Position numbers and translations under genes: made by a program
The notes under the pieces: model-generated
What the model was told of the DNA's origin: nothing
The model's input: only the letters and a program-made list of their open reading frames with translations
Databases searched by the model: none
IMG/VR virus record: IMGVR_UViG_2728369554_000009
Coordinates: 1 to 40,186 of that record
Length of the DNA stretch: 40,186 nt
Origin: a virus
Lineage: Duplodnaviria; Heunggongvirae; Uroviricota; Caudoviricetes
Strand: one strand, 5' to 3'
In this document: one piece after another, positions 4,947 through 33,577 of the stretch
How the letters are laid out: each line of letters starts with the position of its first letter
Position numbering within the stretch: the stretch's first letter is position 1

Positions 4947-4965
4947 AATTTGTTACCTCGGTCTG

Positions 4966-4980
4966 TTACCGTTGAGGTAA
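4966..4980. promoter_or_regulatory. Operator-like palindrome TTACC-N5-GGTAA
   Basis: TTACCGTTGAGGTAA in early-left promoter region; extra half-site at 4953-4957 doubles as SD of 4794-4946 gene. Confidence 0.5.
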
Positions 4981-5027
4981 TGATTATGCGTATCTGGTTT
5001 GATGTCAATAGATATGAGTTAAAAAAA

Positions 5028-5042
5028 TTACCCATAAGGTAA
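5028..5042. promoter_or_regulatory. Operator-like palindrome TTACC-N5-GGTAA
   Basis: TTACCCATAAGGTAA between repressor terminator and early-left operon. Confidence 0.5.
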
Positions 5043-5053
5043 TCTTGCTGGCA

Positions 5054-5079
5054 ATAAAAAAGCCGCCATGAGGCGGCTT
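5054..5079 (-). terminator. Intrinsic terminator after repressor gene
   Basis: AAGCCGCC-ATGA-GGCGGCTT hairpin followed on minus strand by T-run. Confidence 0.7.
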
Positions 5080-5099
5080 ACTTACTGAAAAATATGATT

Positions 5100-5684
5100 T
5101 TATTGTTTGTTTTTTTCGTTCTGGCTGATGACAAATTCAATGTAACTTTCGATCTTTGCCTTCTCTGTTTCGGGTAACAATGCGTAGCGCGAGCGGTCAT
5201 AGTTGATAGTCGCAGGGTCGTGCGGGTGAATCAGTAATTCATAGCCGTGACGCCCGAATGCGGATGCAACATTCTCCAGGGTGGAAATGGAAACGCTGAC
5301 CTCATTGTTTAACAGGCGGCTGATTGTCACCTGGGCGACGCCGGATGCGCGGTGAAGTTTTCCCTGTGTTGAAAGGTAGCGGCTTTCGCTCATCCAGCGT
5401 TCCAGGTTGTGAGCCGCCAGCTGACCAATGTCGCTTGGGCCGACAGGCTGAAAACCTTCCTGAGAAAGCGAGCGATCGATATCAAGCCAGTTACGGGGTT
5501 TATTGGCGGCAGCTTCAATTTTTCGCGCAACCTGGTCGCCGATAACCTTCTTGCCAAGAGCCCAGCGGTTTACCAGATTTGCCTGAGTTCCAAGTTTTTC
5601 TGCCATCCGCGTCTGAACACCATTGAATTCACGGTCGATCAAGTCGTTGAGATTTTGCCTGCGGACGTCCTGGATACTTTTCAT
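5100..5684 (-). CDS. Prophage repressor candidate with two HTH segments and no S24 peptidase domain
   Basis: 194 aa; HTH-like segments (TRMAEKLGTQANLVNRW and ASGVAQVTISRLLNNE); no GDSM/Ser-Lys autocleavage motif seen; divergent from Cro-like gene; intrinsic terminator just downstream; no SD upstream of ATG 5684. Confidence 0.65.
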   Translation of the reverse strand: MKSIQDVRRQNLNDLIDREFNGVQTRMAEKLGTQANLVNRWALGKKVIGDQVARKIEAAANKPRNWLDIDRSLSQEGFQPVGPSDIGQLAAHNLERWMSESRYLSTQGKLHRASGVAQVTISRLLNNEVSVSISTLENVASAFGRHGYELLIHPHDPATINYDRSRYALLPETEKAKIESYIEFVISQNEKNKQ

Positions 5685-5739
5685 TTTCTGGAAAATCGCC
5701 TCATATATGAATCAGTAGATGATTCAATTTAAAGCAATA

Positions 5740-5754
5740 TTACCCAACAGGTAA
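5740..5754. promoter_or_regulatory. Operator-like palindrome TTACC-N5-GGTAA (immunity region)
   Basis: TTACCCAACAGGTAA in repressor/cro divergent region; imperfect copy TTACCTTATGGGTGA at 5788-5802 and half-site 5767-5771. Confidence 0.55.
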
Positions 5755-5838
5755 ATGCACCTCATAGGTAACTATCCTTGATTTTTGTTACCTTATGGGT
5801 GAATATTTATTATCTGAAATAAATATCAGGCAATAGCT

Positions 5839-6069
5839 ATGAGCGATAACGGACATTTCGATTTCAAAAAGCACTGGCTTGCACTTACTCCGGATGAGCG
5901 TGAAGCCTTCGCACAGGAAGCCGGAACGACGAGTCACTATATCCAGACTCACTTAACAGGTAAGCGAAAAATGCCAGGTAAAGTATTGATGAATGGGCTT
6001 TTTAAAGCCTGTAAAACAAGACAATGGCTGCGCTCAAAAGCAGAACTGGCATACTTCTTCTACTCATGA
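5839..6069 (+). CDS. Cro-like small HTH regulator
   Basis: 76 aa; EREAFAQEAGTTSHYIQTHLTGKRKMP HTH-like; divergent from repressor gene across a 154-bp region holding operator-like palindromes; followed by intrinsic terminator. Confidence 0.55.
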   Translation: MSDNGHFDFKKHWLALTPDEREAFAQEAGTTSHYIQTHLTGKRKMPGKVLMNGLFKACKTRQWLRSKAELAYFFYS

Positions 6070-6089
6070 TATCCAGCTACAACCCTCTG

Positions 6090-6113
6090 TAGACCGCCAC
6101 CCGGCGGTCTTTT
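6090..6113 (+). terminator. Intrinsic terminator after Cro-like gene
   Basis: AGACCGCC-ACCC-GGCGGTCT hairpin followed by TTTTC. Confidence 0.7.
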
Positions 6114-6124
6114 CATATCTATTC

Positions 6125-6139
6125 GTACCTCAAAGGTAA
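6125..6139. promoter_or_regulatory. Operator-like palindrome (imperfect, GTACC-N5-GGTAA)
   Basis: GTACCTCAAAGGTAA downstream of cro-like terminator, upstream of 6219 gene. Confidence 0.4.
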
Positions 6140-6218
6140 TAAAAAACCAAATCTGGTTGATCTTTTTTTGTGTCAGCACAAAATAACCGTAATCCCAATA
6201 CTAATAACAGGGCTTACC

Positions 6219-6419
6219 ATGGAAATCATTACACGTATTGATGCCGCAAAGCGCGGACTTAAACGCTACTACACCGGAAAACCATGTAAGCACGGACATG
6301 ACAGTGAACGCTGGGTTTACAACGGACACTGTGTTGAGTGCACCATGGAATCAAACCGTCGCATCAGGGCAGAGATTAAGCAGATCATGATTAATTCCAC
6401 CCCACAACATTCAAGCTGA
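6219..6419 (+). CDS. Small Cys/His-rich protein at the cII position (function unknown)
   Basis: ATG at 6219 (MEIITRIDAAKRGLKRYYTGKPCKHGHDSERWVYNGHCVECT...); C-x-H-x-H...C-x-x-C suggests a zinc-binding fold; the ORF-track start at 6168 is TTG. Confidence 0.45.
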   Translation: MEIITRIDAAKRGLKRYYTGKPCKHGHDSERWVYNGHCVECTMESNRRIRAEIKQIMINSTPQHSS

Positions 6420-6434
6420 TAGCGGAGATTAATC

Positions 6435-7274
6435 ATGAGCAGACATGCAACAGATTGGGCCTGGGAGACAGATCCAGGTAGCTCGTCATTAAAGCTCATA
6501 CTGCTCTCGATGGCTGACAGAGCCGATGAATATAACCTCTGCTACCCCAGCATAGAACGCCTCGTTAAAGACACTTGCCTGAATAAAAAAACCGTGCAGG
6601 CCGGGCTTATATCACTCATGAAAATGGGGCTTATTTCAGATACCGGAGAGAGAAAGGGAGCGACGAAAAGAGTGCGGGTTTTCTCTCTTAATATAACCAA
6701 AAACGGGAACATTAAAGGCAACCGGGAAGGGGGTAATGAACCCGAAAACGGTAATGTTACCGAAAACGGGAATATACCCAAAAACGGGATGTTGAATGAT
6801 CCCAAAAACGGGATGTTGAATGATCCCAAAAACGGGATGTTGAATGATCCCAAAAACGGGATCCAGAACCAGTCATATAACCAGTCATTTAACCAAGAGA
6901 GGGAGAGCAGGACAAAAAGCGGGGATTCTGTGCCTAATGACCCCGGCGCAAACAACGCCGTGATGAATAACTTTGTTCCTCCTGGTGGGCCAGGGCAATT
7001 AGGCAAATTTGTCATGCATGAACAATGGCAACCATCAGATGACTTTCTTCGGAAAAGCTCATTGCAGGGGATCTACCTGGACAGTCTGCCAACGGCACAG
7101 GAACTTGCAGAGTTCAGAATTTACTGGATGGCTGAGGGTAAGGCATACCATCAGGCACAGTGGGAGCAGAAGCTGGCAAGGCGGCTGCAGATTAGCAGAC
7201 AGAAGCAATCAACATTACCTGATAACAACGTTCCGCACTGGAACAGCCCTGAAGCATGGGAGGATTTCTTGTGA
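6435..7274 (+). CDS. Replication initiator (lambda O-like role; N-terminal HTH, repeat-encoding linker, DnaT-like C-terminus)
   Basis: 279 aa; N-terminal HTH-like LKLILLSMADRADEYNLCYPSIERLVKDTCLNKKTVQAGL; central linker encoded by tandem 24-bp repeats (NGMLNDPK x3); position upstream of P-like gene. Confidence 0.7.
   Translation: MSRHATDWAWETDPGSSSLKLILLSMADRADEYNLCYPSIERLVKDTCLNKKTVQAGLISLMKMGLISDTGERKGATKRVRVFSLNITKNGNIKGNREGGNEPENGNVTENGNIPKNGMLNDPKNGMLNDPKNGMLNDPKNGIQNQSYNQSFNQERESRTKSGDSVPNDPGANNAVMNNFVPPGGPGQLGKFVMHEQWQPSDDFLRKSSLQGIYLDSLPTAQELAEFRIYWMAEGKAYHQAQWEQKLARRLQISRQKQSTLPDNNVPHWNSPEAWEDFL
6696..6865. repeat. Iteron array inside the replication initiator gene (putative origin of replication)
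   Basis: Seven direct copies of RAAAACGG(G/T)A incl. three perfect 24-bp units CCCAAAAACGGGATGTTGAATGAT at 6777-6800, 6801-6824, 6825-6848; followed by AT-rich stretch. Confidence 0.65.
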
Positions 7275-8056
7275 ACAACGTTTTTACCGCGATACAAAAC
7301 CGTGACGGAGAAGCCCTTTCTCGCATGTCAGGTTATGAGCATCAGTACGTCAACAATGACAATGTGGTGAACATGTCAGCAGAGAGGCTTGTTGATGCCC
7401 TTTTCAAACAGCTGAAACAACTGTTTCCGGCGGCAGTGGTAACCAACCTGAAGACGCCAGAGCAGGAAGTTGCTGCAAAACAGCAGTGGATTGCTGCGTT
7501 TGCCGAAGGTGGGATCCGAACCCGTGAACAGGTTTCTGCTGGTATGCGCCACGCTCGCGCCAGTGAGTCTCCGTTCTGGCCGTCGCCAGGGCAATTCATC
7601 AAGTGGTGTAAAGACAGCAAGATGGTTCTTGGCGTCACCATTGACGATGTGATGGCGGAGTTTCACCGGTACAGCAAGGAAAAAAGTTTATATCCTGGTG
7701 GTCCCGAAAGATTCCCGTGGCGGCATCCGGTTATGTACTGGGTCGTATGTGATACCCGCCGTGCAATGTATCAGCGCCAGCTTAGCGAGATTGAGGTTGA
7801 GAAACACGCGCGCAGGTTGCTCGATGATTGGGCGAAAAAGGTGGCTTCCGGACAGCAGATACCCGATCCGGTGATCAGCATACAGGCAAAGCCAGAACCC
7901 ATGAGTACACCTCCGGACACAGGGAGAGACGTTTACCATCCACCAGGGCGAAGTTTCGGGTGCATGCCTAACGCCGCCACCCTGGGGGGAATAACACCGG
8001 CGCAGTGGCTGATGGAGGAATACAGGCGAGGAAAGGCAGCAGGATTTATCAAGTAA
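7256..8056 (+). CDS. Lambda P-like replication protein (helicase loader)
   Basis: GGIRTREQVSAGMRHARASESPFWPSPGQFIKWC closely parallels lambda P NGITTMEQVNAGMRVARRQNRPFLPSPGQFVAWC (recalled from memory); start uncertain (ATG 7256 or GTG 7271). Confidence 0.8.
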   Translation: MGGFLVNNVFTAIQNRDGEALSRMSGYEHQYVNNDNVVNMSAERLVDALFKQLKQLFPAAVVTNLKTPEQEVAAKQQWIAAFAEGGIRTREQVSAGMRHARASESPFWPSPGQFIKWCKDSKMVLGVTIDDVMAEFHRYSKEKSLYPGGPERFPWRHPVMYWVVCDTRRAMYQRQLSEIEVEKHARRLLDDWAKKVASGQQIPDPVISIQAKPEPMSTPPDTGRDVYHPPGRSFGCMPNAATLGGITPAQWLMEEYRRGKAAGFIK

Positions 8057-8093
8057 TACCAGCGCGATAGCGCATTTTTTTACGCCTCAATAG

Positions 8094-8108
8094 TTACCCA
8101 ATGGGTAA
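8094..8108. promoter_or_regulatory. Operator-like palindrome TTACC-N5-GGTAA
   Basis: TTACCCAATGGGTAA after P-like gene. Confidence 0.5.
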
Positions 8109-8155
8109 CAAAATGTTCTTAGATCTATTGATTTCGTGTCTTATGTGGTTTTTAA

Positions 8156-8170
8156 TTACCTTAGAGGTAA
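8156..8170. promoter_or_regulatory. Operator-like palindrome TTACC-N5-GGTAA overlapping SD
   Basis: TTACCTTAGAGGTAA ending 3 nt before ATG 8174; right half is the GAGGT Shine-Dalgarno. Confidence 0.5.
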
Positions 8171-8173
8171 ATC

Positions 8174-8518
8174 ATGAGAAAACAGATACAGGCTCTTGGT
8201 CGACTCAAAACAGGCCAGATGAACAAAACAGAATCTGCGTATTGCCAGCACCTTGAGCTGCGTAAACGTGCAGGGGAAATCGCCTGGTATCGATTCGAGG
8301 GTATCAAGCTGCGGTTAGCTGACAACACGTTCTATACGCCAGATTTCGCTGTGATGCTCGCCACCGGAGAGATGGAACTGCACGAAGTGAAAGGTTTCTG
8401 GACCGACGACGCCAGGGTGAAAACCAAAGTCGCCGCAGATCAGTATCCGTTCCGAATCATCGGGGTAACGGTTAAACCAAAGAAAGCAGGTGGCGGCTGG
8501 AACATCGAAGAGTTCTGA
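8174..8518 (+). CDS. DUF1064-family phage protein
   Basis: 114 aa; NKTESAYCQHLELRKRAGEIAWYRFEGIKLRL...YTPDF...HEVKG pattern typical of DUF1064; ATG 3 nt after a TTACC-N5-GGTAA palindrome whose right half supplies the SD. Confidence 0.55.
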   Translation: MRKQIQALGRLKTGQMNKTESAYCQHLELRKRAGEIAWYRFEGIKLRLADNTFYTPDFAVMLATGEMELHEVKGFWTDDARVKTKVAADQYPFRIIGVTVKPKKAGGGWNIEEF

Positions 8519-8579
8519 ATCGACGATCTTTTTAGTTATCAATGTAATCAATAAGTTATGTGGATAAGCGAGGGTAAAG

Positions 8580-9563
8580 ATGGAAAGTAATATCAAAGGG
8601 TTAGTTGCCGCCGGGCATGAGATGGCTTCGGAACTGAACGCAGAATGTGGTGCCGTTGATATGCGCAGTGTGGCAAAGCTGATCAGCGATTTGGCAACGC
8701 AACTGGAAGTGCAACTGGTGCGTGCTAATGCGCTGGCAGCGGAGAATGCTGGGCTTAAGGCCTTCAAAACCGCCGTTTATCAGCAGATGGGCGTCGGATG
8801 TGATGCTCCTGAATTCTCCATTACGACAGGTTTGAGTAACTTACGTCGTTTTGCTGACACACTCCACGCCATTGAACGTGAGTTCTTTACCAAAGAGCTA
8901 CCTGATGAAGAGCACGAAGGCGAAACATTCAATGAATGTCCACTTAGCTGGGGAATGAGCGTCGAACAGTACGTTTCCGAGTTTCGCAAATGCCTGGCTG
9001 AAGTGCGGGCGCAGGGCGTGGATGCTGCTATAGAAGCTGCAAAAAATCTGGTGGCCCAAGAATATGAGTATAAGGATTTCAAAGCGGCGCAGAGTGATTG
9101 CTGTATGCACCCTGGTTCAGACCTAGTAGGGAAGGTTGAAATGACTGAGTGGTTAGTTGACTTTGCTGCCCAGCTTCGCAAAGGAGGCAACCAGGCTGCC
9201 GAATCCAATCGCGGTAATGAGTGGACTGGCAATCCTGATATTGATAACGCCATCATCATGCTCGACCGCATAGATACGCTGGAAAATTGCGATGATGACC
9301 GTATTGAGGCTGTTAAGGCTGTTTTGCGTAGACTGGCTGGCAACTATCCGGTAATTCCGGATGGTTGGATAAGCTGTAGTGAGCGAATGCCGAAAGAAAC
9401 GGGTGACATTATTGTTGTTTCGGATGGCATTGTAATGTCCGGGATTTCTTATTCTCGTCGTGACGGGTTCTATATAGCCGCATTGGAGTACGACGACGAT
9501 GAGCCAATTGGCGGTGTAACCCACTGGATGCCGCTACCGAAACCGCCGCAGGAGGTGAAGTGA
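8580..9563 (+). CDS. Hypothetical protein with C-terminal DUF551-like domain
   Basis: 327 aa; C-terminal WISCSERMP...HWMPLPKPP matches the DUF551 pattern seen in lambdoid nin-region proteins. Confidence 0.55.
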   Translation: MESNIKGLVAAGHEMASELNAECGAVDMRSVAKLISDLATQLEVQLVRANALAAENAGLKAFKTAVYQQMGVGCDAPEFSITTGLSNLRRFADTLHAIEREFFTKELPDEEHEGETFNECPLSWGMSVEQYVSEFRKCLAEVRAQGVDAAIEAAKNLVAQEYEYKDFKAAQSDCCMHPGSDLVGKVEMTEWLVDFAAQLRKGGNQAAESNRGNEWTGNPDIDNAIIMLDRIDTLENCDDDRIEAVKAVLRRLAGNYPVIPDGWISCSERMPKETGDIIVVSDGIVMSGISYSRRDGFYIAALEYDDDEPIGGVTHWMPLPKPPQEVK

Positions 9564-9847
9564 TGGACTCCTTCGCGAAATATACGATTATTGACTGGAT
9601 AGCATTCCTTCAGGTTTTGCTCATCTGGTTTTATATGGCTTACAGGAGTGGACAGTGGATTGTCAGTGTAGCCTGTAGCAAGGGATGGCGTTGGTGGAAC
9701 CGAAAGAATAAAAAAGCACTGGCCTTGGATTCGTTTTACGAAGCATTCAATCTTAACAGTCTTCAGCCTGGTTCTGTCGTTGTAGTCACCACTCAAAGCG
9801 GAATGACGATACAAATTCACAAGCCAAAGGAGGAAGGTCGTGGCTAA
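9563..9847 (+). CDS. Hypothetical small membrane protein
   Basis: ATG 9563 after GGAGGTGAAG; hydrophobic segment IIDWIAFLQVLLIWFYMAY. Confidence 0.4.
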   Translation: MDSFAKYTIIDWIAFLQVLLIWFYMAYRSGQWIVSVACSKGWRWWNRKNKKALALDSFYEAFNLNSLQPGSVVVVTTQSGMTIQIHKPKEEGRG

Positions 9848-10121
9848 CCTGCAACTTGCCGTAAAAGGTGAATACTTCAATGCCATGATTCGCGGAGAGA
9901 AAACGGAAGAGTATCGCTTGTGTAATGACTACTGGAAAAAGCGAATTATGTTCCGGGAGTATGACCGCCTGATTATCACAAGGGGATATCCGAAGCGCGA
10001 CGACTTCAGTCGCAGAATTGACGTCCCGTATGAAGGGTATGAAATCAAGACAATCACACATCCGCACTTCGGCGATAAACCGGTAAAGGTGTTCGCGATA
10101 AAGGTAAATATTGATGGCTAA
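9840..10121 (+). CDS. Hypothetical protein (possible ASCH/PUA-like fold)
   Basis: GTG 9840 after AAAGGAGGAAGG; 93 aa; fold assignment is a weak guess. Confidence 0.4.
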   Translation: MANLQLAVKGEYFNAMIRGEKTEEYRLCNDYWKKRIMFREYDRLIITRGYPKRDDFSRRIDVPYEGYEIKTITHPHFGDKPVKVFAIKVNIDG

Positions 10122-10452: not shown

Positions 10453-10460
10453 CATGTCAC
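10449..10460. repeat. 12-bp perfect palindrome GTGACATGTCAC (copy 1)
   Basis: Overlaps stop codon of 10114-10452 gene; ~40 bp upstream of terminator 10502-10528. Confidence 0.8.
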
Positions 10461-10501
10461 GAGTAGATTATGCATGATGAATTTGATGGGTTTTGAATAC
10501 T

Positions 10502-10528
10502 GCCGCCAACTATGGCGGCTTTATTTTG
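10502..10528 (+). terminator. Intrinsic terminator between early region and terS
   Basis: GCCGCC-AACTAT-GGCGGC hairpin followed by TTTATTTT. Confidence 0.7.
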
Positions 10529-10538
10529 CATGGTACTA

Positions 10539-10553
10539 TTACCACAACGGTAA
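10539..10553. promoter_or_regulatory. Operator-like palindrome TTACC-N5-GGTAA upstream of terS
   Basis: TTACCACAACGGTAA; imperfect TTACCACGGTGGTTA at 10557-10571 overlaps terS start. Confidence 0.5.
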
Positions 10554-10570
10554 CTATTACCACGGTGGTT

Positions 10571-11167
10571 ATGATGCCTGCTGAACCTAAAACCTATAAA
10601 CGCAAATCAACGCAATTTAAGCCACTAACAGCAATGCAGGAGGCTTATTGCCAGTCATACATCAAAACGCCTGAAAACCAGACTCAGGCAGCGATTAACG
10701 CAGGATTCTCCCCAAATACAGCGGCAGTTAAAGCCAGTGTCATGATGCGCGATGAACGCATTCAAAAACGGATTGCCGAGTTGATGGAGGAGCGCAACAA
10801 ACGAATGCGCGTCAGTGCTGATTACGTTCTCATGCGCCTGGTGGAGATCGACCAGATGGACGTGATCGACATCCTCAACGACGATGGGAGCCTTAAGCCA
10901 ATCCGCGAGTGGCCGAAAATCTGGCGCACTACGCTTAGCGGCTTTGATCTGTCATCGACCATCATGAACATGAACGAGGATTCGATAGAGACAATCCTCA
11001 AAAAAATTAAATGGCCTGACAAGGTGAAGAACCTCGAACTGATTGGTAAGCACGTCGACGTCAAAGCATTCAAAGAACGCCTGGATGTTAATGTGAATGT
11101 GACAATTGCTGATCGCATAGCAGCAGCCAGGAAGCGACTCAAAGAACGTCAGGATGGTAATCAGTGA
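10571..11167 (+). CDS. terS: Terminase small subunit
   Basis: AYCQSYIKTPENQTQAAINAGFSPNTAAVKASVMMRDERIQKRI resembles Terminase_2-type small subunits; immediately upstream of and overlapping terL. Confidence 0.75.
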   Translation: MMPAEPKTYKRKSTQFKPLTAMQEAYCQSYIKTPENQTQAAINAGFSPNTAAVKASVMMRDERIQKRIAELMEERNKRMRVSADYVLMRLVEIDQMDVIDILNDDGSLKPIREWPKIWRTTLSGFDLSSTIMNMNEDSIETILKKIKWPDKVKNLELIGKHVDVKAFKERLDVNVNVTIADRIAAARKRLKERQDGNQ

Positions 11168-12639: not shown

Positions 12640-12688
12640 TCCGCTGGTGGGGATAATATCGTTGATATCCTCTGGTGAGGATAAAACA

Positions 12689-12714: not shown

Positions 12715-12725
12715 TGACATGTCAC
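12714..12725. repeat. 12-bp perfect palindrome GTGACATGTCAC (copy 2)
   Basis: Abuts bidirectional terminator 12689-12714 between terL and the minus-strand moron. Confidence 0.8.
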
Positions 12726-13099: not shown

Positions 13100-13803
13100 G
13101 AATGATCAACGGAGTGCCTTCCTTGGCGGGTGATGCAGGGTTTACAGCGCAACGTCATCGGAATGGCGTTCTGCTGTAAAAAGGGCGGTGGTCAGAAGAA
13201 GGAGAACTGCCACCGCCAAAGCTACACGCATTGCCTGGTACTGCCGTATCACGGTCCTAACGTGATTGGGTTGTGGTGGCCGGTGCTGATCTCCGGCTTG
13301 AAATATGCTCAGTGTTAGCTGCCACTCTCTCAAGAGGATATGCGTCATGATTTTCACTGAGTTTGTTGGGTAACCCTGACTTCCGGCTATTCACGCAGCT
13401 TGTCTTCCAACTCAGGCTTATGCCTTACCCATTCCCCCACGTTCACGGGGTGCGCATCAGCCTGCGCATTCACCACAACGGAAAGAGCACTGACTTCGAG
13501 CAGACCTTGGGCCCAGGAACGACGATCAATCTCAATGCTCTTACCTGTTGCATCCTCGTCTCTTCCGAGGTGTCACACCTGATCGCCGGGATGGTGAATC
13601 CCCGTGCGCGGAATAAAACCGCTCGACTTGCACATTCCGGCTACCTGGTTCGTTTGCCCGAGCAAGGGAGGGTGCCCCTTAAACGTATCCAGACCGCTAT
13701 CGGCGCATGTGCCATACGCCGTACTGCTCAAAATAAAAGCTCACTCCACCTGTTCAATTTAACGACAAGCCAGTCAGGTTAGTAACCGGAATGAACTCTT
13801 TGG

Positions 13804-13818
13804 TTACCTGAAAGGTAA
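13804..13818. promoter_or_regulatory. Operator-like palindrome TTACC-N5-GGTAA upstream of portal operon
   Basis: TTACCTGAAAGGTAA ~90 bp upstream of 13909 gene. Confidence 0.5.
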
Positions 13819-13908
13819 TAATTTGTGCGTTAAATGTCAACTACCTACGATAAATAAATCATATGTGGTTAAATTGGTAATAATTTAATTGCGTACGGAG
13901 TCATTGAT

Positions 13909-19615: not shown

Positions 19616-22086
19616 TGGCTATCAGTTGGATCCAGCCCAGCTTTGCCGGTGGTGAGATTGGACCGTCGTTGTACGGTCGTATTGACATGGCGAAGTACCA
19701 GGTGGCATTGCGCAAGTGCGATAACTTTATCGTGCGGCAGTATGGCGGAGTTGAGAATCGACCTGGTACGCGTTTTGTCGGTGCCGCCAAATACCCAAAT
19801 CGGAAATGCCGCCTGATCCCGTTCCAGTTCTCGACGGTTCAGACTTATGCTCTGGAGTTCGGACACCAGTACATGCGCGTTATCAAAGATGGTGCGTTGG
19901 TGCTGAACAGCAGCAATGTTATTTATGAAATTTCCACGCCATATACTGAAGCCGATCTGTTCCGAATTAAATTCACGCAAAGCGCAGACGTGCTTACGCT
20001 GGTTCATCCGGCATACCCGCCGAAAGAGTTGCGCCGCTATGCGCATGACAACTGGCAACTGGTTGATGTGGTAACGAAGAACGGGCCATTTGAAGATATC
20101 AATATTGACGAGTCAGTGACGGTTTATGCCAGCGCCAGCACCGGGACAATTACGCTAACGGCAAGCGCCTCTATTTTTGGCGCGGAGCAGGTAGGCAAAT
20201 TGTTCTATCTGGAACAGCCTGCAGTGGATTCTGTGCCGGTATGGGAAACCAGTAAGAGTACGTCGATTGGCGATATTCGCCGTGCAGACAGTAACTACTA
20301 TCGCGCCGTTACAGCAGGCAAAACAGGTACTTTGCGCCCTTCGCATACAGAAGGCACATCATGGGATGGCTGGGGCGGATCCGGTGATGATGATACTGGC
20401 ATTGAGTGGGAATATCTGCACAGTGGTTTTGGCATTGCCCGTATCACTGCTGCAAATGGAACTACTGCAACTGCCGAGGTGATTTCCTATATCCCTTCGC
20501 AGGTCGTGGGCGAGGATAATGCCAGCTATAAATGGGCTAAATATGCCTGGAACAGTGTTAATGGTTATCCTGGCACTGTTGTTTATTATCAACAACGTCT
20601 TTACTTCGCCGCATCGACTGCGTTTCCTCAGACTATCTGGGCCAGCCGTACCGGGGATTATAAGGATTTTGGCAAAAGCAATCCTACGCAGGATGACGAC
20701 AGAATTATCTACACCTATGCCGGACGTCAGGTTAATGAGATCCGCCACCTGATTGATGTTGGTTCTCTGGTGGCGCTGACTTCCGGAGGTGAGTACGTCA
20801 TCACCGGCGACCAGAACAAAGTGTTAACCCCATCATCATTTGCATTCAGCTCTCAGGGATCAAATGGCTCAAGCAACGTCCCGCCAATTGCCGTGGCGAA
20901 TATTGCTCTGTTCGTCCAGGAGAAAGGCAGCGTTGTCCGTGATCTGGCCTACTCATTCGATGTTGACGGCTATCAGGGGAACGACCTGACCATCCTTGCC
21001 AATCATCTTTTTCAGAAGCACAGCATTGTTGACTGGTGCTTCTCGATTGTCCCTTACTCCAGTGCCTTCTGCATTCGTGATGACGGTAAATTACTGGTGA
21101 TGACCTATTTGCGTGATCAGCAGGTTTTTGCATGGGCACCACAATCCAGTACCGGAAAATATGAAAGCACATGCAGTATCAGCGAAGGCAATGAAGATGC
21201 GGTGTATTTCGTCGTTAACCGAACCGTTAACGGGCAAACAGTGAGATACATCGAGCGACTGTCCAGCCGTTTATTTACCAGCGATGAAGATGCTTTCTTT
21301 GTTGATTCTGGCCTTAGCTATGATGGAAGAAATACGTCTGACAGAACGATGATCATCACTGGTGGTTCTGGCGAATGGGATTACCGCGCGGAATATACAA
21401 TCAGTGTTTCTGGTGGTGCGTACTTCACCAGTAGTGATGTCGGCGCGCAACTACAGTTCCCTTATACCGGAACGGATCCTGATACTGGCGATGAAGTGTC
21501 AAAAGAATTACGTTGCGACATTATTTCTGTAACCAGCAATACCGCTGTAGTGGTTCGTCCTAACAGGAACGTCCCGCCATCCCTCAGGAATGTGGCCACC
21601 ACGAACTGGCAGATGGCGCGCCGGGCATTTGGCGGCTTGTCTCATCTTGAAGGTCAGACCGTAAACATTCTCTCTGATGCGAACGTGGAACCACAGAAAG
21701 TGGTTTCCGGAGGTGCCGTCACGCTGGAATCTACGGGGGCTGTAGTGCACATCGGCCTGCCAATAACTGCTGAATTCGAAACACTGGATATCAACATTAA
21801 CGGACAGGAAACGCTGCTGGACAAAAAACAGGTGATCCCCTCCGTTACTCTGGTTGTGAATGCCAGTCGCGGCATCTGGGCGACTACGCCCGGCGGTAAA
21901 TGGTACGAATATCCACAGCGTGAATTCGAGTTCTACGATGATCCTGTTGATGATGCTACCGGAAAAGTAGAAGTGAAACTGGACAGTAACTGGGGCAAAA
22001 ACGGACGTGTAAAAATCCGTCAGCTTGACCCGTTGCCGCTGTCTGTTCTTGCCGTTATTCCTCGCCTTACTGTTGGGGGATTCTGA
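19615..22086 (+). CDS. Tail nozzle (T7 gp12-like tail tubular protein B)
   Basis: 823 aa; N-terminal GGEIGPSLYGR and central SRTGDYKDF...DDD segments parallel T7 gp12 (recalled). Confidence 0.75.
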   Translation: MAISWIQPSFAGGEIGPSLYGRIDMAKYQVALRKCDNFIVRQYGGVENRPGTRFVGAAKYPNRKCRLIPFQFSTVQTYALEFGHQYMRVIKDGALVLNSSNVIYEISTPYTEADLFRIKFTQSADVLTLVHPAYPPKELRRYAHDNWQLVDVVTKNGPFEDINIDESVTVYASASTGTITLTASASIFGAEQVGKLFYLEQPAVDSVPVWETSKSTSIGDIRRADSNYYRAVTAGKTGTLRPSHTEGTSWDGWGGSGDDDTGIEWEYLHSGFGIARITAANGTTATAEVISYIPSQVVGEDNASYKWAKYAWNSVNGYPGTVVYYQQRLYFAASTAFPQTIWASRTGDYKDFGKSNPTQDDDRIIYTYAGRQVNEIRHLIDVGSLVALTSGGEYVITGDQNKVLTPSSFAFSSQGSNGSSNVPPIAVANIALFVQEKGSVVRDLAYSFDVDGYQGNDLTILANHLFQKHSIVDWCFSIVPYSSAFCIRDDGKLLVMTYLRDQQVFAWAPQSSTGKYESTCSISEGNEDAVYFVVNRTVNGQTVRYIERLSSRLFTSDEDAFFVDSGLSYDGRNTSDRTMIITGGSGEWDYRAEYTISVSGGAYFTSSDVGAQLQFPYTGTDPDTGDEVSKELRCDIISVTSNTAVVVRPNRNVPPSLRNVATTNWQMARRAFGGLSHLEGQTVNILSDANVEPQKVVSGGAVTLESTGAVVHIGLPITAEFETLDININGQETLLDKKQVIPSVTLVVNASRGIWATTPGGKWYEYPQREFEFYDDPVDDATGKVEVKLDSNWGKNGRVKIRQLDPLPLSVLAVIPRLTVGGF

Positions 22087-28853: not shown

Positions 28854-28874
28854 TCAATATTTATTGGAGTTCTT

Positions 28875-29402
28875 TCAATGGCTGTTTATGGCTTCTAAAG
28901 AAGCTTCTGCACTTATCGGCAAAGCAATAGTATCCTTGTTAGATGTGCTATTGCTTTCCAGAACTATGGAAATCCAATCCTCTTGGTTTTCATTAATTGT
29001 GCTGACAGCCATGATAGCATTCAAATCATTTTTATATATTTCTGATCGAATAAGACCTTTCCTGAATAATTTAGTTAAGTTTTCAGCTATCGACATCGCA
29101 CGAATGCTAACTTTACTAAGCTCAATTGCGTCACTACCTGCGACTTTGGCGTGTTGAGAAAGAGCCATCAAAGCTATATGTGAAAATGTTTCTTCTTTTG
29201 AAAAACCGTTACTTAAAGACATGAGTGATACACCAGCTCCGTATGGGGTGAGTTTATATCCTGATACATTCAGTGCATGCTCTACAAAGGTAAGATCATC
29301 AGTTGTAGAAACATGCATATCGTTACTTTTTTGTTTTTTTGCAATAAATAAAAAAACAAAATTAATAATCACGATGCCGACGATGATTAAGAAAACTTCC
29401 AT
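28875..29402 (-). CDS. Membrane-anchored hypothetical moron protein
   Basis: 175 aa; N-terminal TM helix MEVFLIIVGIVIINFVFLFIA; gene is AT-rich relative to neighbours; SD GAGGAA; operator-like palindrome 29423-29437 just upstream. Confidence 0.55.
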   Translation of the reverse strand: MEVFLIIVGIVIINFVFLFIAKKQKSNDMHVSTTDDLTFVEHALNVSGYKLTPYGAGVSLMSLSNGFSKEETFSHIALMALSQHAKVAGSDAIELSKVSIRAMSIAENLTKLFRKGLIRSEIYKNDLNAIMAVSTINENQEDWISIVLESNSTSNKDTIALPISAEASLEAINSH

Positions 29403-29422
29403 TGCTTTTCCTCACAATAACA

Positions 29423-29437
29423 TTACCTTAAAGGTAA
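29423..29437. promoter_or_regulatory. Operator-like palindrome TTACC-N5-GGTAA
   Basis: TTACCTTAAAGGTAA ~20 bp upstream of membrane-protein moron start (29402). Confidence 0.5.
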
Positions 29438-29462
29438 TATTTTGTGCTAATGTGATCAAGTG

Positions 29463-29861
29463 TTAAGTGTATACCTCCTGCTGTTCAGTCGTGATTTTAC
29501 CCGGCAACACCTTTTTAGCTTTGCGCGGGTTAACCACATGGCCTTTAGTCCAGTACTCGTAGAGCACATCATCACACTCTTCCTGATACTGGATTACCTT
29601 ATCGCGGATTTCAGGGCGGACTTTGTTTGGACTGATGCTGTTCAACCAAGCTGCCAATTTTCGTAAAGCCATACAAATCATGGCTTGCACCCCTCCGGCA
29701 GAAGGTATGGTGATTTCCACCATACCCTTCGAGAAGCGTTGAGAAATCTTCTTATGTTGAGATTTCCAGTCTAGACCCATTCCCTCAACGATAGGTTTCA
29801 TTGGGGTGTACGGTTCGCCGTTGTGATTGACAACATAAAGTTCTACGCCGTGGAATGGCAC
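29463..29861 (-). CDS. Hypothetical phage protein (possibly regulatory)
   Basis: 132-aa protein-like ORF; start ambiguous (GTG 29861 or ATG 29801); divergent from antirepressor leader. Confidence 0.45.
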   Translation of the reverse strand: MPFHGVELYVVNHNGEPYTPMKPIVEGMGLDWKSQHKKISQRFSKGMVEITIPSAGGVQAMICMALRKLAAWLNSISPNKVRPEIRDKVIQYQEECDDVLYEYWTKGHVVNPRKAKKVLPGKITTEQQEVYT

Positions 29862-30008
29862 GTTGATAGTAGTGACAAGTTTGAAACATCGCTGGTTGTA
29901 AGCCAGCAGATGCTCGTTATTTTACATCGCGGTACAATTTCTCGCTGGTGGCTCTTTTATACACCTTAACCAAATATGGTTGATTTTGATATTTATCTTC
30001 GTCTATTA

Positions 30009-30023
30009 TTACCTTTTCGGTAA
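30009..30023. promoter_or_regulatory. Operator-like palindrome TTACC-N5-GGTAA at head of Bro-N antirepressor leader
   Basis: TTACCTTTTCGGTAA, followed by TTTACA-N17-CATAGT promoter-like hexamers. Confidence 0.5.
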
Positions 30024-30103
30024 ATTTACATCGCACTCCTCTTGTGCCATAGTAATCGGGCACTGGCAAAATCCAGTGCCGGGATTGGTCTCCCGGATTA
30101 CTA
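30009..30103. repeat. Left arm of perfect 95-bp inverted repeat (antirepressor leader)
   Basis: Reverse complement of 33103-33197 with no mismatches by eye; includes palindrome 30009-30023, -35-like TTTACA and two hairpins. Confidence 0.85.
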
Positions 30104-30290
30104 CAGAGGCACATATGCCGCATAAGCGGTTTTTTTATGTGTAAAGCGCACCTATTCTATGGTGGGCTGTGTGGGGGCACCGAAAGGTGCGCCGGGTTCC
30201 TTTGTAGCCGGTAAGACCAACTCTGCACAGTTCACCACCATCTGATTGGTCTCAGCGGTGGTGATTAACCTAACTACAAAGGTGATCGCC
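30024..30290 (+). ncRNA. Structured 5' leader / candidate sRNA upstream of Bro-N antirepressor gene
   Basis: Hairpins at 30059-30080, 30079-30096, terminator hairpin+T7 at 30118-30136, GAAA-tetraloop hairpin 30177-30190, 8-bp-stem hairpin 30232-30264; mirrored with compensatory changes in the AntA leader. Confidence 0.45.
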
Positions 30291-30983
30291 ATGAATACCA
30301 AACCTTCCATCTTTTCCTTTGAGTCATCCTGCCAGATCCGTATGTTCATGATTGACGGAGAACCTTGGTTTGTCACCAAAGATGTGTGCAATGCTTTGAA
30401 TATTGATGTTACACAAGCGAGAAAACTTGATAAAAAAGGCTGGAACAAAAAGGGGCTGTATTCAATACAGACCCCTGGTGGAATACAAGAACTATCCATC
30501 GTTTCAGAATCAGGTCTCTACATCCTTATTCTGCGTTGCAAAGAGGCAATGACTGAGGGAACGAGAGCATTCAGATTTCTTGAATGGGTTACAGGTGAGG
30601 TTCTTCCTCAGATCCGCCGCACCGGAAGTTACATTAAAAACTCGCTCCCGCAGGAAGAACGCATAAAGATGGTTGCCGACCAGGTAGCCAACGCCACGGC
30701 GTCAGCAGTAATGCAGGCGATGAAGATAGAGAACAAAACCTACAGTGCCCCGCTGAAGCCCGGCTACCGCAGCCTGATTCATTCTCCGTCTGGTGTTCTC
30801 GGCCTGACGGAGAACTCACTGCTGATGAATCTGCTGAACCAGTTACAGGAAGACGGGCACGATGTATCGGGCGCGGCGGCGGAGCTGACCACCATGTTCT
30901 GCTACATCGTCGGTGTGAGCAAATGCCTGCGTGATATCCAGACGCACGCGGAATACATCAACGACAAGGCAGGGTTCTTCTGA
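30291..30983 (+). CDS. Antirepressor-family protein: Bro-N domain fused to shared C-terminal (KilAC-like) domain
   Basis: N-terminus FSFESSCQIRMFMIDGEPWFVTKDVCNAL...ESGLYILILR fits Bro-N; C-terminal ~78 aa near-identical to C-terminus of 32255-32911 gene; ATG 30291 after AAAGGTGA. Confidence 0.7.
   Translation: MNTKPSIFSFESSCQIRMFMIDGEPWFVTKDVCNALNIDVTQARKLDKKGWNKKGLYSIQTPGGIQELSIVSESGLYILILRCKEAMTEGTRAFRFLEWVTGEVLPQIRRTGSYIKNSLPQEERIKMVADQVANATASAVMQAMKIENKTYSAPLKPGYRSLIHSPSGVLGLTENSLLMNLLNQLQEDGHDVSGAAAELTTMFCYIVGVSKCLRDIQTHAEYINDKAGFF
30741..30983. repeat. Left copy of ~243-bp inverted repeat encoding the shared antirepressor C-terminal domain
   Basis: Near-identical (a handful of substitutions) to reverse complement of 32255-32497. 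Confidence 0.85.
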
Positions 30984-31021
30984 CAGAACGGCGGCACAGG
31001 GACGTGCAAAACGAAACTAGC

Positions 31022-31033
31022 GTGACATGTCAC
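31022..31033. repeat. 12-bp perfect palindrome GTGACATGTCAC (copy 3)
   Basis: Between Bro-N antirepressor stop and terminator 31034-31058. Confidence 0.8.
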
Positions 31034-31058
31034 AGGCCGCTTTCGCGGCCTTGTTTTT
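31034..31058 (+). terminator. Intrinsic terminator after Bro-N antirepressor gene
   Basis: AGGCCGC-TTTC-GCGGCCT hairpin followed by TGTTTTT. Confidence 0.65.
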
Positions 31059-31218
31059 AACGAATGCCACCGCCACCCGGGCGGGAATCCGCAGAACGCC
31101 CACCGCAGCGGGAGCCGTCAGCAGCAGTGTCGCTGTCGTGCTGACAACGACCGGCAAAGGCCTGAGTTGAAGCTACCAGAGACAACAAAACGAACAGTGC
31201 AGCAAATGCTTTTTTCAT
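31057..31218 (-). CDS. Small predicted secreted peptide (tentative)
   Basis: MKKAFAALFVLLSLVASTQAFA signal-peptide-like N-terminus followed by ~31 aa with two Cys; weak SD; 3' end runs into the terminator hairpin. Confidence 0.3.
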   Translation of the reverse strand: MKKAFAALFVLLSLVASTQAFAGRCQHDSDTAADGSRCGGRSADSRPGGGGIR

Positions 31219-31299
31219 TGTGAAATTTCCATCTATAAACCACCTCAATGTGGCGTCAATGAGTGTAGCACTGACTTTTGTTTCGTCCATAAAAAACTA

Positions 31300-31812
31300 C
31301 TATGCAGGCTTTTTGGATTTGTACGAATAATCCCACGGATAAACATTTCTACTAAGTGGAGCTGTATTCGTTCGTTCATGAAATAATTTTGTGAAATTCA
31401 ATACGGAATCCATCCAAACTTTTGCGTTAGCTTTGGTGTGTGCGGGCGGGTCCCAATAAGCTAGTAAGGCTGCATCTCTTATTTCATTGACTGCATATAT
31501 GAGATATGCGTTACTGGTTGGTTTTGGCCTGTAATTTCCTTGTTCATCAATCAATCCATATGACCACTCATCCCAACACTGTTCAGTACATGAGTATGAA
31601 TATGATGCATATTCACCAATATTGACATGAACCTTTCTGAGATGGAAGCCTAATACTTCCTCTGGTCTTTCAAAAAGAGTATCTTTTCCCAGATCAGGAT
31701 GATGACCATGACGCCAGTGTTGTTTAAAAGCATCTTTTAGCGAAATCAGAAAGTCATCAGTTTTAAACTCACCAGTAGGTATAACCTTCCCGCTATACTC
31801 ACTCAAAAACAT
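31300..31812 (-). CDS. YafO-like putative toxin (AT-rich moron)
   Basis: 170 aa; PDLGKDTLFERPEEV...AYLIYAVNEIRDAALLAYWDPPAH parallels my recollection of E. coli YafO (PDTFGRDALYDD...AHLVYCQGAFDEQAWLLIAILKPEPH); SD GGAAGAGG; overlaps upstream gene by 14 nt. Confidence 0.45.
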   Translation of the reverse strand: MFLSEYSGKVIPTGEFKTDDFLISLKDAFKQHWRHGHHPDLGKDTLFERPEEVLGFHLRKVHVNIGEYASYSYSCTEQCWDEWSYGLIDEQGNYRPKPTSNAYLIYAVNEIRDAALLAYWDPPAHTKANAKVWMDSVLNFTKLFHERTNTAPLSRNVYPWDYSYKSKKPA

Positions 31813-32125
31813 CGAATTCCTCTTCCTTCATATGCGTTTCTAATGAGTTAAGCTGGCGGAAAGATATCTCTTTTGATTCTGCAGATGAGAGCTTTTTTAT
31901 CCGCTTTATATTCTTTGTGATAGGAATAGACATTGTATGCACATCAGCGGATGCTCTTGGCTTTGTGCTGATAAAAATATGGCGCAATGCCGCATTTTCA
32001 CTATTGAACGAGCCAATAGCTGATTTACGTGCTACAACCTTACCAGTAAAAATACGACTCTTGCTACGCTTTGCATGAGTTCCGCTTCTTACCGGACCTC
32101 TCATCACGAATCCAAGTTTTGTCAT
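31799..32125 (-). CDS. Basic hypothetical protein, upstream partner of YafO-like gene
   Basis: 108 aa, Lys/Arg-rich with acidic C-terminus EEEFDVFE; SD GGAGAT; operator-like palindrome 32168-32182 upstream; not recognisably a known antitoxin. Confidence 0.4.
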   Translation of the reverse strand: MTKLGFVMRGPVRSGTHAKRSKSRIFTGKVVARKSAIGSFNSENAALRHIFISTKPRASADVHTMSIPITKNIKRIKKLSSAESKEISFRQLNSLETHMKEEEFDVFE

Positions 32126-32167
32126 CTTTAATCTCCGGTAAGTTACAGGTATAAAATAAAAACAGGT

Positions 32168-32182
32168 TTACCTTTAAGGTAA
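32168..32182. promoter_or_regulatory. Operator-like palindrome TTACC-N5-GGTAA
   Basis: TTACCTTTAAGGTAA ~45 bp upstream of 32125 gene start. Confidence 0.5.
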
Positions 32183-32254
32183 TAGTACGCTATTCACCCC
32201 CGGTCTGCAATCTGTACAGAATTATTTAAAGGCACATCCCTGTGCCACCGCCCG

Positions 32255-32497
32255 TCAGAAGAACCCTGCCTTGTCGTTGATGTACTCCGCGTGGGTCTGG
32301 ATATCACGCAGGCATTTGCTCACACCGACGATGTAGCAGAACATGGTGGTCAGCTCCGCCGCCGCGCCCGATACGTCGTGCCCGTCGTCCTGTAACTGGT
32401 TCAGCAGATTCATCAGCAGTGAGTTCTCCGTCAGGCCGAGAACACCAGACGGCGAATGAATCAGGCTGCGGTAGCCGGGCTTCAGTGGGGCGCTGTA
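32255..32497. repeat. Right copy of ~243-bp inverted repeat encoding the shared antirepressor C-terminal domain
   Basis: Near-identical to reverse complement of 30741-30983. Confidence 0.85.
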
Positions 32498-32911
32498 TTC
32501 TTTTTTGTCTTCCAGCTTGATCGCCTCCATTATGGCGGGCATGAAGCCTGACAAGACCTTCTCCACTTTTGTTTCTTGTTGTCTTAAACGTTTCTCGCAT
32601 TCAATGAAGTAGCGTCGCACCTGGCGACCTTTTTCGTTACGCTCGACCATCGCCAGCTCTTTGGCTGTATCAAGGGTGAGGTGGTACTCTTTGCGGTTGT
32701 GGCCGCCTCTACCAGATGTTTGCTTTCCCAAATTGGAAAGCAAAATATAGTCTTGATTTTCAATGAATTCGTATTCTGATATGCGATTTGTAATCCATGC
32801 TGCAAACACCTTTTTAACACCTAAAAAAGCGTGCAGATCGCGGGCATTACAAAGTAGGGCTGTTTCGTTAGATATAGTGCCGTTGAATACGGGGATGAGT
32901 TGAGCGTTCAT
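32255..32911 (-). CDS. Antirepressor-family protein: AntA-like N-terminal domain fused to shared C-terminal (KilAC-like) domain
   Basis: N-terminus [28 protein letters not shown]...[22 protein letters not shown] fits AntA; C-terminal ~78 aa near-identical to the Bro-N gene. Confidence 0.7.
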
Positions 32912-33182
32912 GATGGCGTCTCCACTTAGCGAATTACATCACCACCGCTGAGACCAATCAGATGGTGGTGAACTGAACGGAGTTGGTCTTACCGGCCTAA
33001 GTGGTACCGGCGTCCTTTCGGACCCCCATTCAGCCCACCATAATTCTGGCATGACTGTGCTATACGCATAAAAAAACCACGTCTGGCGTGGTATGCGCCA
33101 CTTAGTAATCCGGGAGACCAATCCCGGCACTGGATTTTGCCAGTGCCCGATTACTATGGCACAAGAGGAGTGCGATGTAAAT
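32912..33182 (-). ncRNA. Structured 5' leader / candidate sRNA upstream of AntA antirepressor gene
   Basis: Mirror of the Bro-N leader: same hairpins, terminator stem CCACG-CCAGA-CGTGG+T7 (33076-33090), GTCC-GAAA-GGAC (33012-33023), conserved hairpin 32939-32971. Confidence 0.45.
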
Positions 33183-33197
33183 TTACCGAAAAGGTAA
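33103..33197. repeat. Right arm of perfect 95-bp inverted repeat (antirepressor leader)
   Basis: Reverse complement of 30009-30103. Confidence 0.85.
33183..33197. promoter_or_regulatory. Operator-like palindrome TTACC-N5-GGTAA at head of AntA antirepressor leader
   Basis: TTACCGAAAAGGTAA; mirror of 30009-30023. Confidence 0.5.
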
Positions 33198-33228
33198 ATA
33201 TAAGCACTCCACTTGGTAATTGCAAACC

Positions 33229-33486
33229 TTATCTGGTTTGTTTTCGTAATTGTTCGGCACAATAGTCGAGATGTGTTTGCAGATCCTGCATAGACATCTG
33301 TGAGCTGGTGACGTAGTTAATCAGTGCAGTCAGTTCGGCAAGTGGGCCATCGACATTAAATCCATCCTTATCGAGATCCCGGAGTAATTTCATCAAGTGC
33401 GATCCCTCCACCAGTGACCTGACGCCTCCCGGCGTGTGAATCCTTTCGGTAAATCCGTCTTCCAGTGGATAGTGATACTGCTGCAT
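33229..33486 (-). CDS. Stand-alone paralogue of the antirepressor C-terminal domain
   Basis: ATG 33486 after GGAGAA; MQQYHYPLEDGFTERIHTPGGVRSLVEGSHLMKLLRDL...QTHLDY aligns at ~40% identity by eye with the shared C-terminal domain of the two antirepressor genes. Confidence 0.5.
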   Translation of the reverse strand: MQQYHYPLEDGFTERIHTPGGVRSLVEGSHLMKLLRDLDKDGFNVDGPLAELTALINYVTSSQMSMQDLQTHLDYCAEQLRKQTR

Positions 33487-33562
33487 CTTATCTTCTCCAT
33501 GCAATAACTGTATATTTATACAGTAGCAAATAATTTGTTTGCTATCCAGCACGTTTTGCAAA

Positions 33563-33577
33563 TTACCTGAAAGGTAA
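33563..33577. promoter_or_regulatory. Operator-like palindrome TTACC-N5-GGTAA
   Basis: TTACCTGAAAGGTAA upstream of stand-alone C-terminal-domain gene (start 33486). Confidence 0.5.

Follow-up and report, generated by a model that had tools for sequence, protein, structure and literature searches.

Why does a single 15-bp palindrome, TTACC-N5-GGTAA, stand in front of most transcription units of a prophage, and which protein reads it? The question is raised by a stretch of 40,186 nucleotides (IMG/VR record IMGVR_UViG_2728369554_000009, positions 1 to 40,186; hereafter the window, meaning the whole stretch), which is a phiV10-like prophage of the genus Uetakevirus (ε15-like podoviruses) integrated at guaA in Escherichia coli. 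Sequence comparison makes it highly probable that the palindrome is the operator of the immunity repressor Rep, a protein of the ε15/SPC32H Rep family, and that this operator is dispersed before most transcription units. The window opens at the start codon of int, the attR core lies at 39008-39024 and the DNA beyond it belongs to the host (yfgI, yfgH). Across its immunity and replication region the prophage shares 97.8% identity with phiV10, and E. coli 04-00955 carries the same prophage, also at guaA. Since the immunity region of this prophage type is found in 562 of 5426 complete E. coli genomes, the type is common and a map of its operators is thus useful for annotation and engineering; phiV10 and SPC32H also serve as reporter phages.

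Number, placement and conservation of the palindrome

A search with TTACCNNNNNGGTAA (TTACC-N5-GGTAA) returned 12 perfect copies in the window, all at the positions given in an initial annotation of the sequence, while 0.04 copies are expected from base composition and 0.00 from 100 dinucleotide shuffles, none of which reached one match. With up to one mismatch 15 copies are present (0.8 expected), the three additional ones (5788, 6125 and 10557) being the imperfect copies already listed there, with one mismatch each. According to a curated gene list every one of the 15 is intergenic, as had been claimed, although non-coding DNA makes up only 7.5% of the prophage, and the chance of finding 12 of 12 perfect copies in this fraction is about 3e-14. 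The sites at 10539 and 10557 fall inside a mechanically called TTG open reading frame (ORF; 10493-11167), yet lie upstream of the ATG at 10574, which agrees with the terS start of ε15 and SPC32H. As for host DNA, the approximately 98 kb of chromosome flanking the same prophage in E. coli 04-00955 contain no perfect and seven one-mismatch copies. Copies with two mismatches occur at background density (25 in the window versus 22-31 per 50 kb of host DNA), with the exception of 5757-5771, which occupies the middle OR position. Ten of the resulting 16 copies (12 perfect, three with one and one with two mismatches) lie outside the immunity region. Those at 30009 and 33183 are not independent, because they are the arms of one 100-bp inverted duplication that is 98% complementary. 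The suggested consensus TTACCY-N3-RGGTAA holds roughly; in symmetrised site profiles position 6 is mostly T, the dyad centre is nearly always A or T, and the N5 is 69-90% A+T.

Six Uetakevirus genomes from four host genera were compared (the window, phiV10, ε15, SPC32H, Tyrion and BUCT711). The putative operators and the promoters predicted at them, palindromic sites being given without strand, are:

4966-4980: OL1, promoter-proximal PL operator; perfect, abuts the PL -10, geometry kept in six genomes
5008-5003 and 4985-4980, leftward: PL promoter, -35 TTGACA, 17 nt, -10 AATCAT, a 10/12 sigma-70 match
5028-5042: OL2, distal PL operator; perfect, 19 nt upstream of the PL -35 and 62 bp centre-to-centre from OL1
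5740-5754: OR operator nearest rep; perfect, kept in the rep-cro gap of six genomes
5757-5771: middle OR operator, degenerate GCACCTCATAGGTAA (GCACC..GGTAA); two mismatches, perfect at the same place in ε15, SPC32H and BUCT711
5788-5802: OR operator overlapping PR; one mismatch, conserved, between -35 TTGTTA (5785-5790) and -10 TATTAT (5808-5813)
6125-6139: imperfect operator GTACC..GGTAA ahead of the replication genes, immediately following the cro terminator (6091-6110); same one-mismatch version in phiV10 and Tyrion, a one-mismatch copy at that position in BUCT711
8094-8108: distal operator of the DUF1064-operon promoter; perfect, follows the P-gene terminator directly, 19 nt ahead of -35 TTGATT (8128-8133)
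8156-8170: proximal operator of the DUF1064-operon promoter; perfect, abuts the -10-like TTTAAT
10539-10553: operator upstream of terS; perfect, 20 bp after the terminator at 10502-10519; syntenic ε15 site 12-27 annotated 'repressor'
10557-10571: second, imperfect terS operator; one mismatch, 18 bp beyond the first and stopping 2 nt short of the ATG at 10574
13804-13818: operator between leftward cargo genes and the gp3-portal structural operon; perfect; syntenic ε15 site 2931-2947 annotated 'repressor'
29423-29437: operator at the leftward promoter of ORF 28875-29402 (PHROG 21690, unknown function); perfect, 1 nt downstream of the -10
29466-29461 and 29444-29439, leftward: promoter at the 29423 operator, -35 TTAACA, 16 nt, -10 CAAAAT
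30009-30023: operator of antirepressor module 1; perfect, promoters on both sides
32168-32182: operator ahead of the leftward cargo operon of three genes (32125-31057); perfect
33183-33197: operator of antirepressor module 2; perfect
33563-33577: operator in the divergent ant/tailspike control region; perfect, with a -35-like TTGCAA 1 nt away towards ant; syntenic ε15 site 19895-19911 annotated 'repressor'
L006:49845-49859, just outside the window start: one-mismatch copy TTACCTTAAAGGTAT, 43 bp upstream of int, conserved in all Uetakevirus genomes compared

When all 5+5 palindromes with a spacer of 0-12 were scanned blindly in each genome, TTACC-N5-GGTAA ranked first in six of six, perfect copies numbering 8 in phiV10, 10 in SPC32H, 11 in ε15, 9 each in Tyrion and BUCT711, and 12 in the window. 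The sites are also syntenic. On the immunity side PL has two or three of them, the rep-cro gap has three, and an imperfect one follows the cro terminator; elsewhere a pair precedes the DUF1064/RuvC gene, one or two precede terS, one stands before the gp3-portal operon and one between ant and tailspike; further syntenic sites are one before the lysis cassette (in the relatives) and an imperfect one before int. The GenBank record of ε15 (AY150271.2) labels seven sites 'protein_bind, repressor, lysogeny', including those before terS, the portal operon and tailspike, and all seven contain TTACC-N5-GGTAA, while in the phiV10 record the palindromes are present without annotation. In ε15 the stretch before int is annotated with integrase and RNase III sites and with no repressor site.

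Dispersed operators are thus a trait of the genus, already annotated in ε15, and no oddity of the prophage in the window, and current understanding is not overturned, as this class of site was known there. What is added here are the enrichment figures, the genus-wide site map, the half-site following the Rep N-terminal domain, the paired 62-bp geometry and the operator-bearing antirepressor cassettes; literature text searches on the motif or on Uetakevirus operators retrieved nothing specific, and some of these additions may already have been published.

The manner in which the sites vary indicates what is being conserved. Among 80 IMG/VR loci, all with an identical Rep N-terminal domain, 5 of 110 half-site columns are variable, as against 31 of 55 columns of the central N5 and 117 of 660 flanking columns (half-sites versus flanks, p = 2e-4; N5 versus flanks, p = 1e-9). 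Between genera, too, the half-sites are kept while spacers and flanks have diverged. Fixed half-sites around a free spacer indicate, as a pattern of substitution, that two half-sites separated by one turn of the helix are recognised in a base-specific manner.

Rep and the Cro-like protein as candidate readers

The genes that bear on the identity of the reader, and the regulatory site linked to them, are:

5100-5684, minus strand: rep, repressor of 194 amino acids with an N-terminal helix-turn-helix (HTH) and a middle HTH_3-like domain
5839-6069, plus strand: small Cro-like HTH protein of 76 amino acids (PHROG 35, 'transcriptional repressor'), possible second reader of the operators
33229-33489, minus strand: ant, small SPC32H-type antirepressor, 88% identity to SPC32H Ant (PDB 5D50_E, E 3.5e-47)
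33508-33523: LexA (SOS) box CTGTATATTTATACAG (CTGT-N8-ACAG) upstream of ant, conserved in six of six genomes

Rep matches the SPC32H Rep over residues 1-190 (PDB 5D50_A, E 1.4e-41), that is, along its full length, with about 42% identity overall to the ε15/SPC32H proteins, and its N-terminal core (..ANLVNRW..G.K.IG..AR.IE) is invariant across the genus. The Pfam scan of Rep returned only HTH families (HTH_3 at 106-147 and a weak YdaS-type HTH at 21-61), and no S24 (LexA-like) autocleavage domain. According to a secondary summary of Kim et al. 2016, SPC32H Rep is a tetramer on palindromic DNA, each DNA-binding pair being drawn from different dimers, and SPC32H Ant, itself tetrameric, breaks the Rep-DNA complex or tetramer; the C-terminal part of SPC32H Rep is described as the tetramerisation domain. 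Full-length Rep homology, an Ant gene with its LexA box and a syntenic operator palindrome together place the system, by sequence, in the ε15/SPC32H Rep-operator-Ant family.

More distant relatives help to connect the site with one part of Rep. The cI protein of the Pseudomonas phage PseuP_224 shares only the N-terminal 70 residues of Rep (E 1e-12) and ends in an S24-type domain, and the top palindrome of this 43-kb genome, which has a Q antiterminator, is TTACC-N4-GGTAA, with four sites that all flank cI. A search for further distant homologues of the Rep N-terminal domain gave mostly short fragments, and only protein P0018, on a JGI lambdoid contig (L090), provided useful context: it has a Rep-type N-terminal domain, and TTACC-N4-GGTAA is found in the cI-cro gap. 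As both relatives share only that domain of Rep and have the half-site, the half-site travels with the Rep N-terminal domain. Together with the ε15 annotation, the Rep homology and the conservation of half-sites, these outgroups support the earlier proposal that a single DNA-binding protein encoded by the prophage acts in front of most units.

The initial annotation had named the Cro-like protein as the other candidate. It is unlikely that this protein, instead of Rep, is the main reader of the dispersed copies, damping or timing lytic transcription. Its conservation across the genus (58-84% identity) parallels the invariance of the half-sites, and Cro and CI share operators in the classical switches; it has no Pfam match. 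However, the two lambdoid relatives share the half-site along with the Rep N-terminal domain, while the cro-like ORF of PseuP_224 has no similarity to the Cro-like protein of the window (BLASTP, E up to 10), and the depositor of the ε15 record attributed the sites to the repressor.

Promoter geometry and a model of silencing

PL and the DUF1064-operon promoter share one layout: operator, 19 nt, -35, 17 nt, -10, operator (TTGATT, 17 nt and TTTAAT between the two operators in the latter). From centre to centre the paired operators are separated by 62 bp at either promoter in the six genomes, with the exception of PL in BUCT711 (63 bp), although the intervening sequence differs. This distance corresponds to about six turns of the helix, which suits a tetramer that has two units for binding DNA, and the conserved pairs offer a directly testable looping model for a tetrameric Rep of known structure. 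In six of six genomes the proximal DUF1064 operator ends 3 nt before the ATG of the gene (8174 in the window), and the Shine-Dalgarno sequence (GAGG) lies within the right half of this operator (GAGGTAA); the mRNA leader of this operon would be very short and consist largely of operator sequence.

Three operators between rep and cro and two at PL form a layout typical of immunity operators, and the PR operator is placed between -35 and -10. In the antirepressor modules the operator lies between an upstream promoter and the promoter of isrK, the predicted isrK start agreeing with the Rfam match. Because the sites at 6125, 8094 and 10539 directly follow terminators (phiV10 annotation being among the basis for these), a roadblock role is possible there.

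Several observations weigh against Rep as the general operator-binding repressor. No convincing sigma-70 promoter was found over the operator of the portal and tailspike units, the best-conserved promoter-like block lying 40-60 bp downstream of these operators, which makes direct repression of these two units uncertain. The lysis cassette (from 37108) has no copy with up to two mismatches in the window, although relatives carry one at that place. The Cro-like protein is more conserved than Rep within the genus, a within-genus comparison which does not separate the two readers. Finally, the Reps of the two main groups, only 42% identical overall, go with the same core site, so that operator specificity alone may not define immunity.

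The arrangement at the portal and tailspike units could also be read as that of an activator site or core promoter element, for instance for a phage activator of middle or late genes, with no repression involved. A site that precedes the best-conserved promoter-like block by 40-60 bp is reminiscent of upstream activator sites, and the right half with its flank (GGTAATAAT) looks like a -10 element. This explanation is very unlikely, as the same palindrome makes up the OL and OR clusters around rep and covers the -10/+1 region at PL, the DUF1064 promoter and 29423, which are positions of a repressor; in the relatives (PseuP_224 and L090) it is carried only in the cI-cro region.

Even less credible is that the copies are passive repeats, spread by recombination as 'linkers' between modules or acting as weak RNA hairpins or terminators, with no protein bound. 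Edges of homology blocks often fall at or beside copies (13804, 10528, about 8061 and 30019), the block shared with ε15 and SPC32H beginning exactly at the 13804 operator, two copies stem from one duplication, and every copy can form a hairpin of 5-7 bp. The hairpins are, however, weak (-3 to -9 kcal/mol) and without a T-run, and on these grounds the palindrome was rejected as an RNA hairpin or terminator. RNA structure does not fit because the half-sites are fixed while loop and flanks vary without compensatory change, a pattern that marks base-specific reading by a protein and neither structure nor common descent, and the 62-bp phasing and promoter overlap are conserved. That a host transcription factor recognises the palindrome can practically be dismissed: nothing specific speaks for it beyond the presence of the sites in phages of four enterobacterial genera that share many regulators, we know of no E. 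coli regulator with a TTACC-N5-GGTAA consensus, perfect copies are absent from the 98 kb of host DNA, and a Pseudomonas phage whose cI has a homologous N-terminal domain carries these half-sites at its own immunity region.

Returning to Rep as the reader, we infer from the sites and homologies described above its binding, looping between paired operators and direct repression of the late promoters (terS, portal, tailspike). By the structural work on SPC32H and the sequence, paired N-terminal HTH domains of a Rep tetramer would read the two TTACC half-sites one helical turn apart, giving each tetramer two palindrome-binding units. At PL and at the DUF1064-operon promoter, one unit could sit on the operator abutting the -10 and the other on the operator 62 bp upstream, creating a small loop that clamps the promoter, while at PR Rep would occupy the operator between -35 and -10. 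The remaining units (replication genes, terS, the pre-portal gap, the ant/tailspike gap and the accessory cassettes, including two isrK-C4-antirepressor modules) would be served by a single or double operator overlapping or adjoining the promoter. In the lysogen Rep alone would then silence essentially every unit by promoter occlusion, and possibly by blocking read-through. In phage ZX5, overexpression of the identical repressor reduced holin and endolysin transcripts by more than 99.9%, an effect in which direct and indirect control are not distinguished. As Rep is without an S24 autocleavage domain, induction probably proceeds through the antirepressor: by homology, DNA damage would remove LexA from the box upstream of ant, and the Ant then made would dismantle the Rep tetramer and release all units together.

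A more far-reaching version of this scheme, which we offer tentatively and consider rather doubtful as a whole, would make Rep the sole gatekeeper of the entire Uetakevirus genome. Every unit (terminase, structural genes, tailspike, acquired cassettes) would have an operator of its own and new cassettes would have to gain one in order to be tolerated, while tetramers would bridge pairs 62 bp apart, and perhaps sites at long range, into a looped and silenced prophage. There would be no dedicated late regulator, and timing would come from a second factor reading another palindrome, AACCA-N4-TGGTT (see below).

The prophage is a clear Gram-negative example of a single repressor whose operators stand at most transcription units. 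With ε15 and SPC32H it has in common the core palindrome, the syntenic positions (PL, OR, DUF1064/RuvC, terS, portal operon and ant/tailspike), the homologous Rep, an Ant of 88% identity and the LexA box before ant. The sites of these Salmonella phages extend to ATTACC..GGTAAT and have a centre more A+T-rich than those of the window, which differs also in its extra operators before two isrK-C4-antirepressor modules and two cargo operons and in having no site before the lysis cassette.

In phage P1 the C1 repressor acts on many dispersed operators, including Op51 before the immI operon (c4 antisense RNA, icd and ant), and these are asymmetric 17-mers. The window resembles P1 in that a single immunity repressor has operators scattered over the genome, and in the immI-like succession of a repressor-controlled promoter, a C4 antisense RNA (RF01695) and an antirepressor gene, of which it has two. 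However, its site is a symmetric 15-mer with a perfect dyad, Rep is of the HTH_3/SPC32H-Rep type with no sign of kinship to C1, though no separate C1 homology search was made, and an isrK-like small RNA (sRNA) precedes C4 in the window. The stoperators of cluster A mycobacteriophages (L5 gp71, Bxb1) are asymmetric, orientation-dependent, 24 or more in number and block elongation. Like L5, the window has numerous repressor sites beyond the immunity region that lie in short gaps between genes, three of them after terminators, but its sites are palindromic and without orientation, number about 15 and mostly overlap promoters. Multiple asymmetric operators are mentioned in a published abstract (PMC1934351). 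The system of the window works like that of P1 C1 and partly resembles the L5 stoperators, and it is a member of neither family because of the symmetric site and the different protein family. As in lambda, the repressor and cro genes are divergent, three operators occupy the gap between the two and PL has a second cluster, and in the lambdoid relatives PseuP_224 and L090, with the homologous N-terminal domain, the same half-site is found at OL and OR with a spacer of 4; unlike lambda CI, Rep is without an S24 domain and has operators beyond the immunity region, and no Q-type antiterminator was detected in the window.

Antirepressor modules, cargo operons and a second palindrome

The region at 28.9-33.6 kb, which is larger than its phiV10 counterpart, holds two accessory modules that begin with the operator:

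30009-30983, plus strand: antirepressor module 1, operator 30009-30023, isrK-like sRNA 30060-30136, C4 antisense RNA 30155-30242, Bro-N antirepressor 30246-30983
32255-33197, minus strand: antirepressor module 2, inverted paralogue of module 1, operator 33183-33197, isrK 33146-33070, C4 33045-32961, AntA-type antirepressor 32911-32255

Module 1 is supported by Rfam matches to RF01394 (isrK-like, 74.7 bits) and RF01695 (C4, 78.6 bits) and by Pfam Bro-N, and the inverted paralogous module spans are 30004-30984 and 32254-33202. The succession of operator, isrK, C4 and antirepressor occurs once each in phiV10, Tyrion and TL-2011b, and each acquired antirepressor cassette comes with, or has gained, the operator of the resident repressor. 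Altogether four antirepressor-like genes are present in the prophage (Bro-N, AntA, the SPC32H-type Ant and a truncated P22_AR_N protein at 29463-29861). In the accessory region of TL-2011b a match to the P22 sar antisense RNA (RF00262, 44.8 bits, cutoff 43; L091:31231-31298) beside a 315-amino-acid ORF may point to a module like immI of P22.

An operator likewise stands at the head of two cargo operons of unknown function (29423 and 32168). The one at 32125-31057 has a weak YafO-like match, and an identity of these operons as defence or toxin-antitoxin systems found no support, there being no PADLOC or NCBIfam match. The 29423-type operator recurs with its flank in TL-2011b at 34478, at another position and inverted, and the 32168-type operator with its GGTAAtagtac flank recurs there at 33333, again at another position. 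The same operator and flank at other positions suggest, at the level of sequence, that accessory cassettes move together with their own operators.

At the place of the tRNA gene that phiV10 (L001:2856-2929), TL-2011b and SPC32H carry between terL and the portal operon, the window has none, and its sequence (13190-13534) is unrelated to phiV10. Close by, a minus-strand TTGACA (13840-13835), 16 nt from the 13804 operator, is conserved in six of six genomes; it may belong to a leftward promoter for the cargo/tRNA region, in which case the 'portal' operator would serve a divergent pair, and no acceptable -10 was found for it.

The second palindrome, AACCA-N4-TGGTT with an A+T-rich centre, has 10 matches with up to one mismatch (1.4 expected; none of 100 shuffles reached 10). 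Copies in the window lie at 6145-6158, 13857-13870, 29968-29981, 33225-33238 and 33604-33617 (the last with an inverted partner at 33634-33644), and others are found in phiV10 (L001:24736), SPC32H (L002:24826) and Tyrion (L004:26452). Copies in regulatory regions, several of them conserved in the genus, are found at the post-cro, portal, tailspike, lysis-cassette and antirepressor-module promoters, with a TTACC operator 20-53 bp away. The palindrome may serve a second regulator, either the Cro-like protein or a late activator, or may belong to the promoters themselves. The 11-mer CATATGTGGTT, considered as a separate late-promoter motif, was rejected, as it is unenriched at two mismatches (19 found versus 12.3 expected). 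Repeated terminator-like matches brought to light three tandem 24-bp units (TGGGATCATTCAACATCCCGTTTT, minus strand) at 6785-6852, within the DnaT-like replication gene (6435-7274), which look like the iterons of a replication origin.

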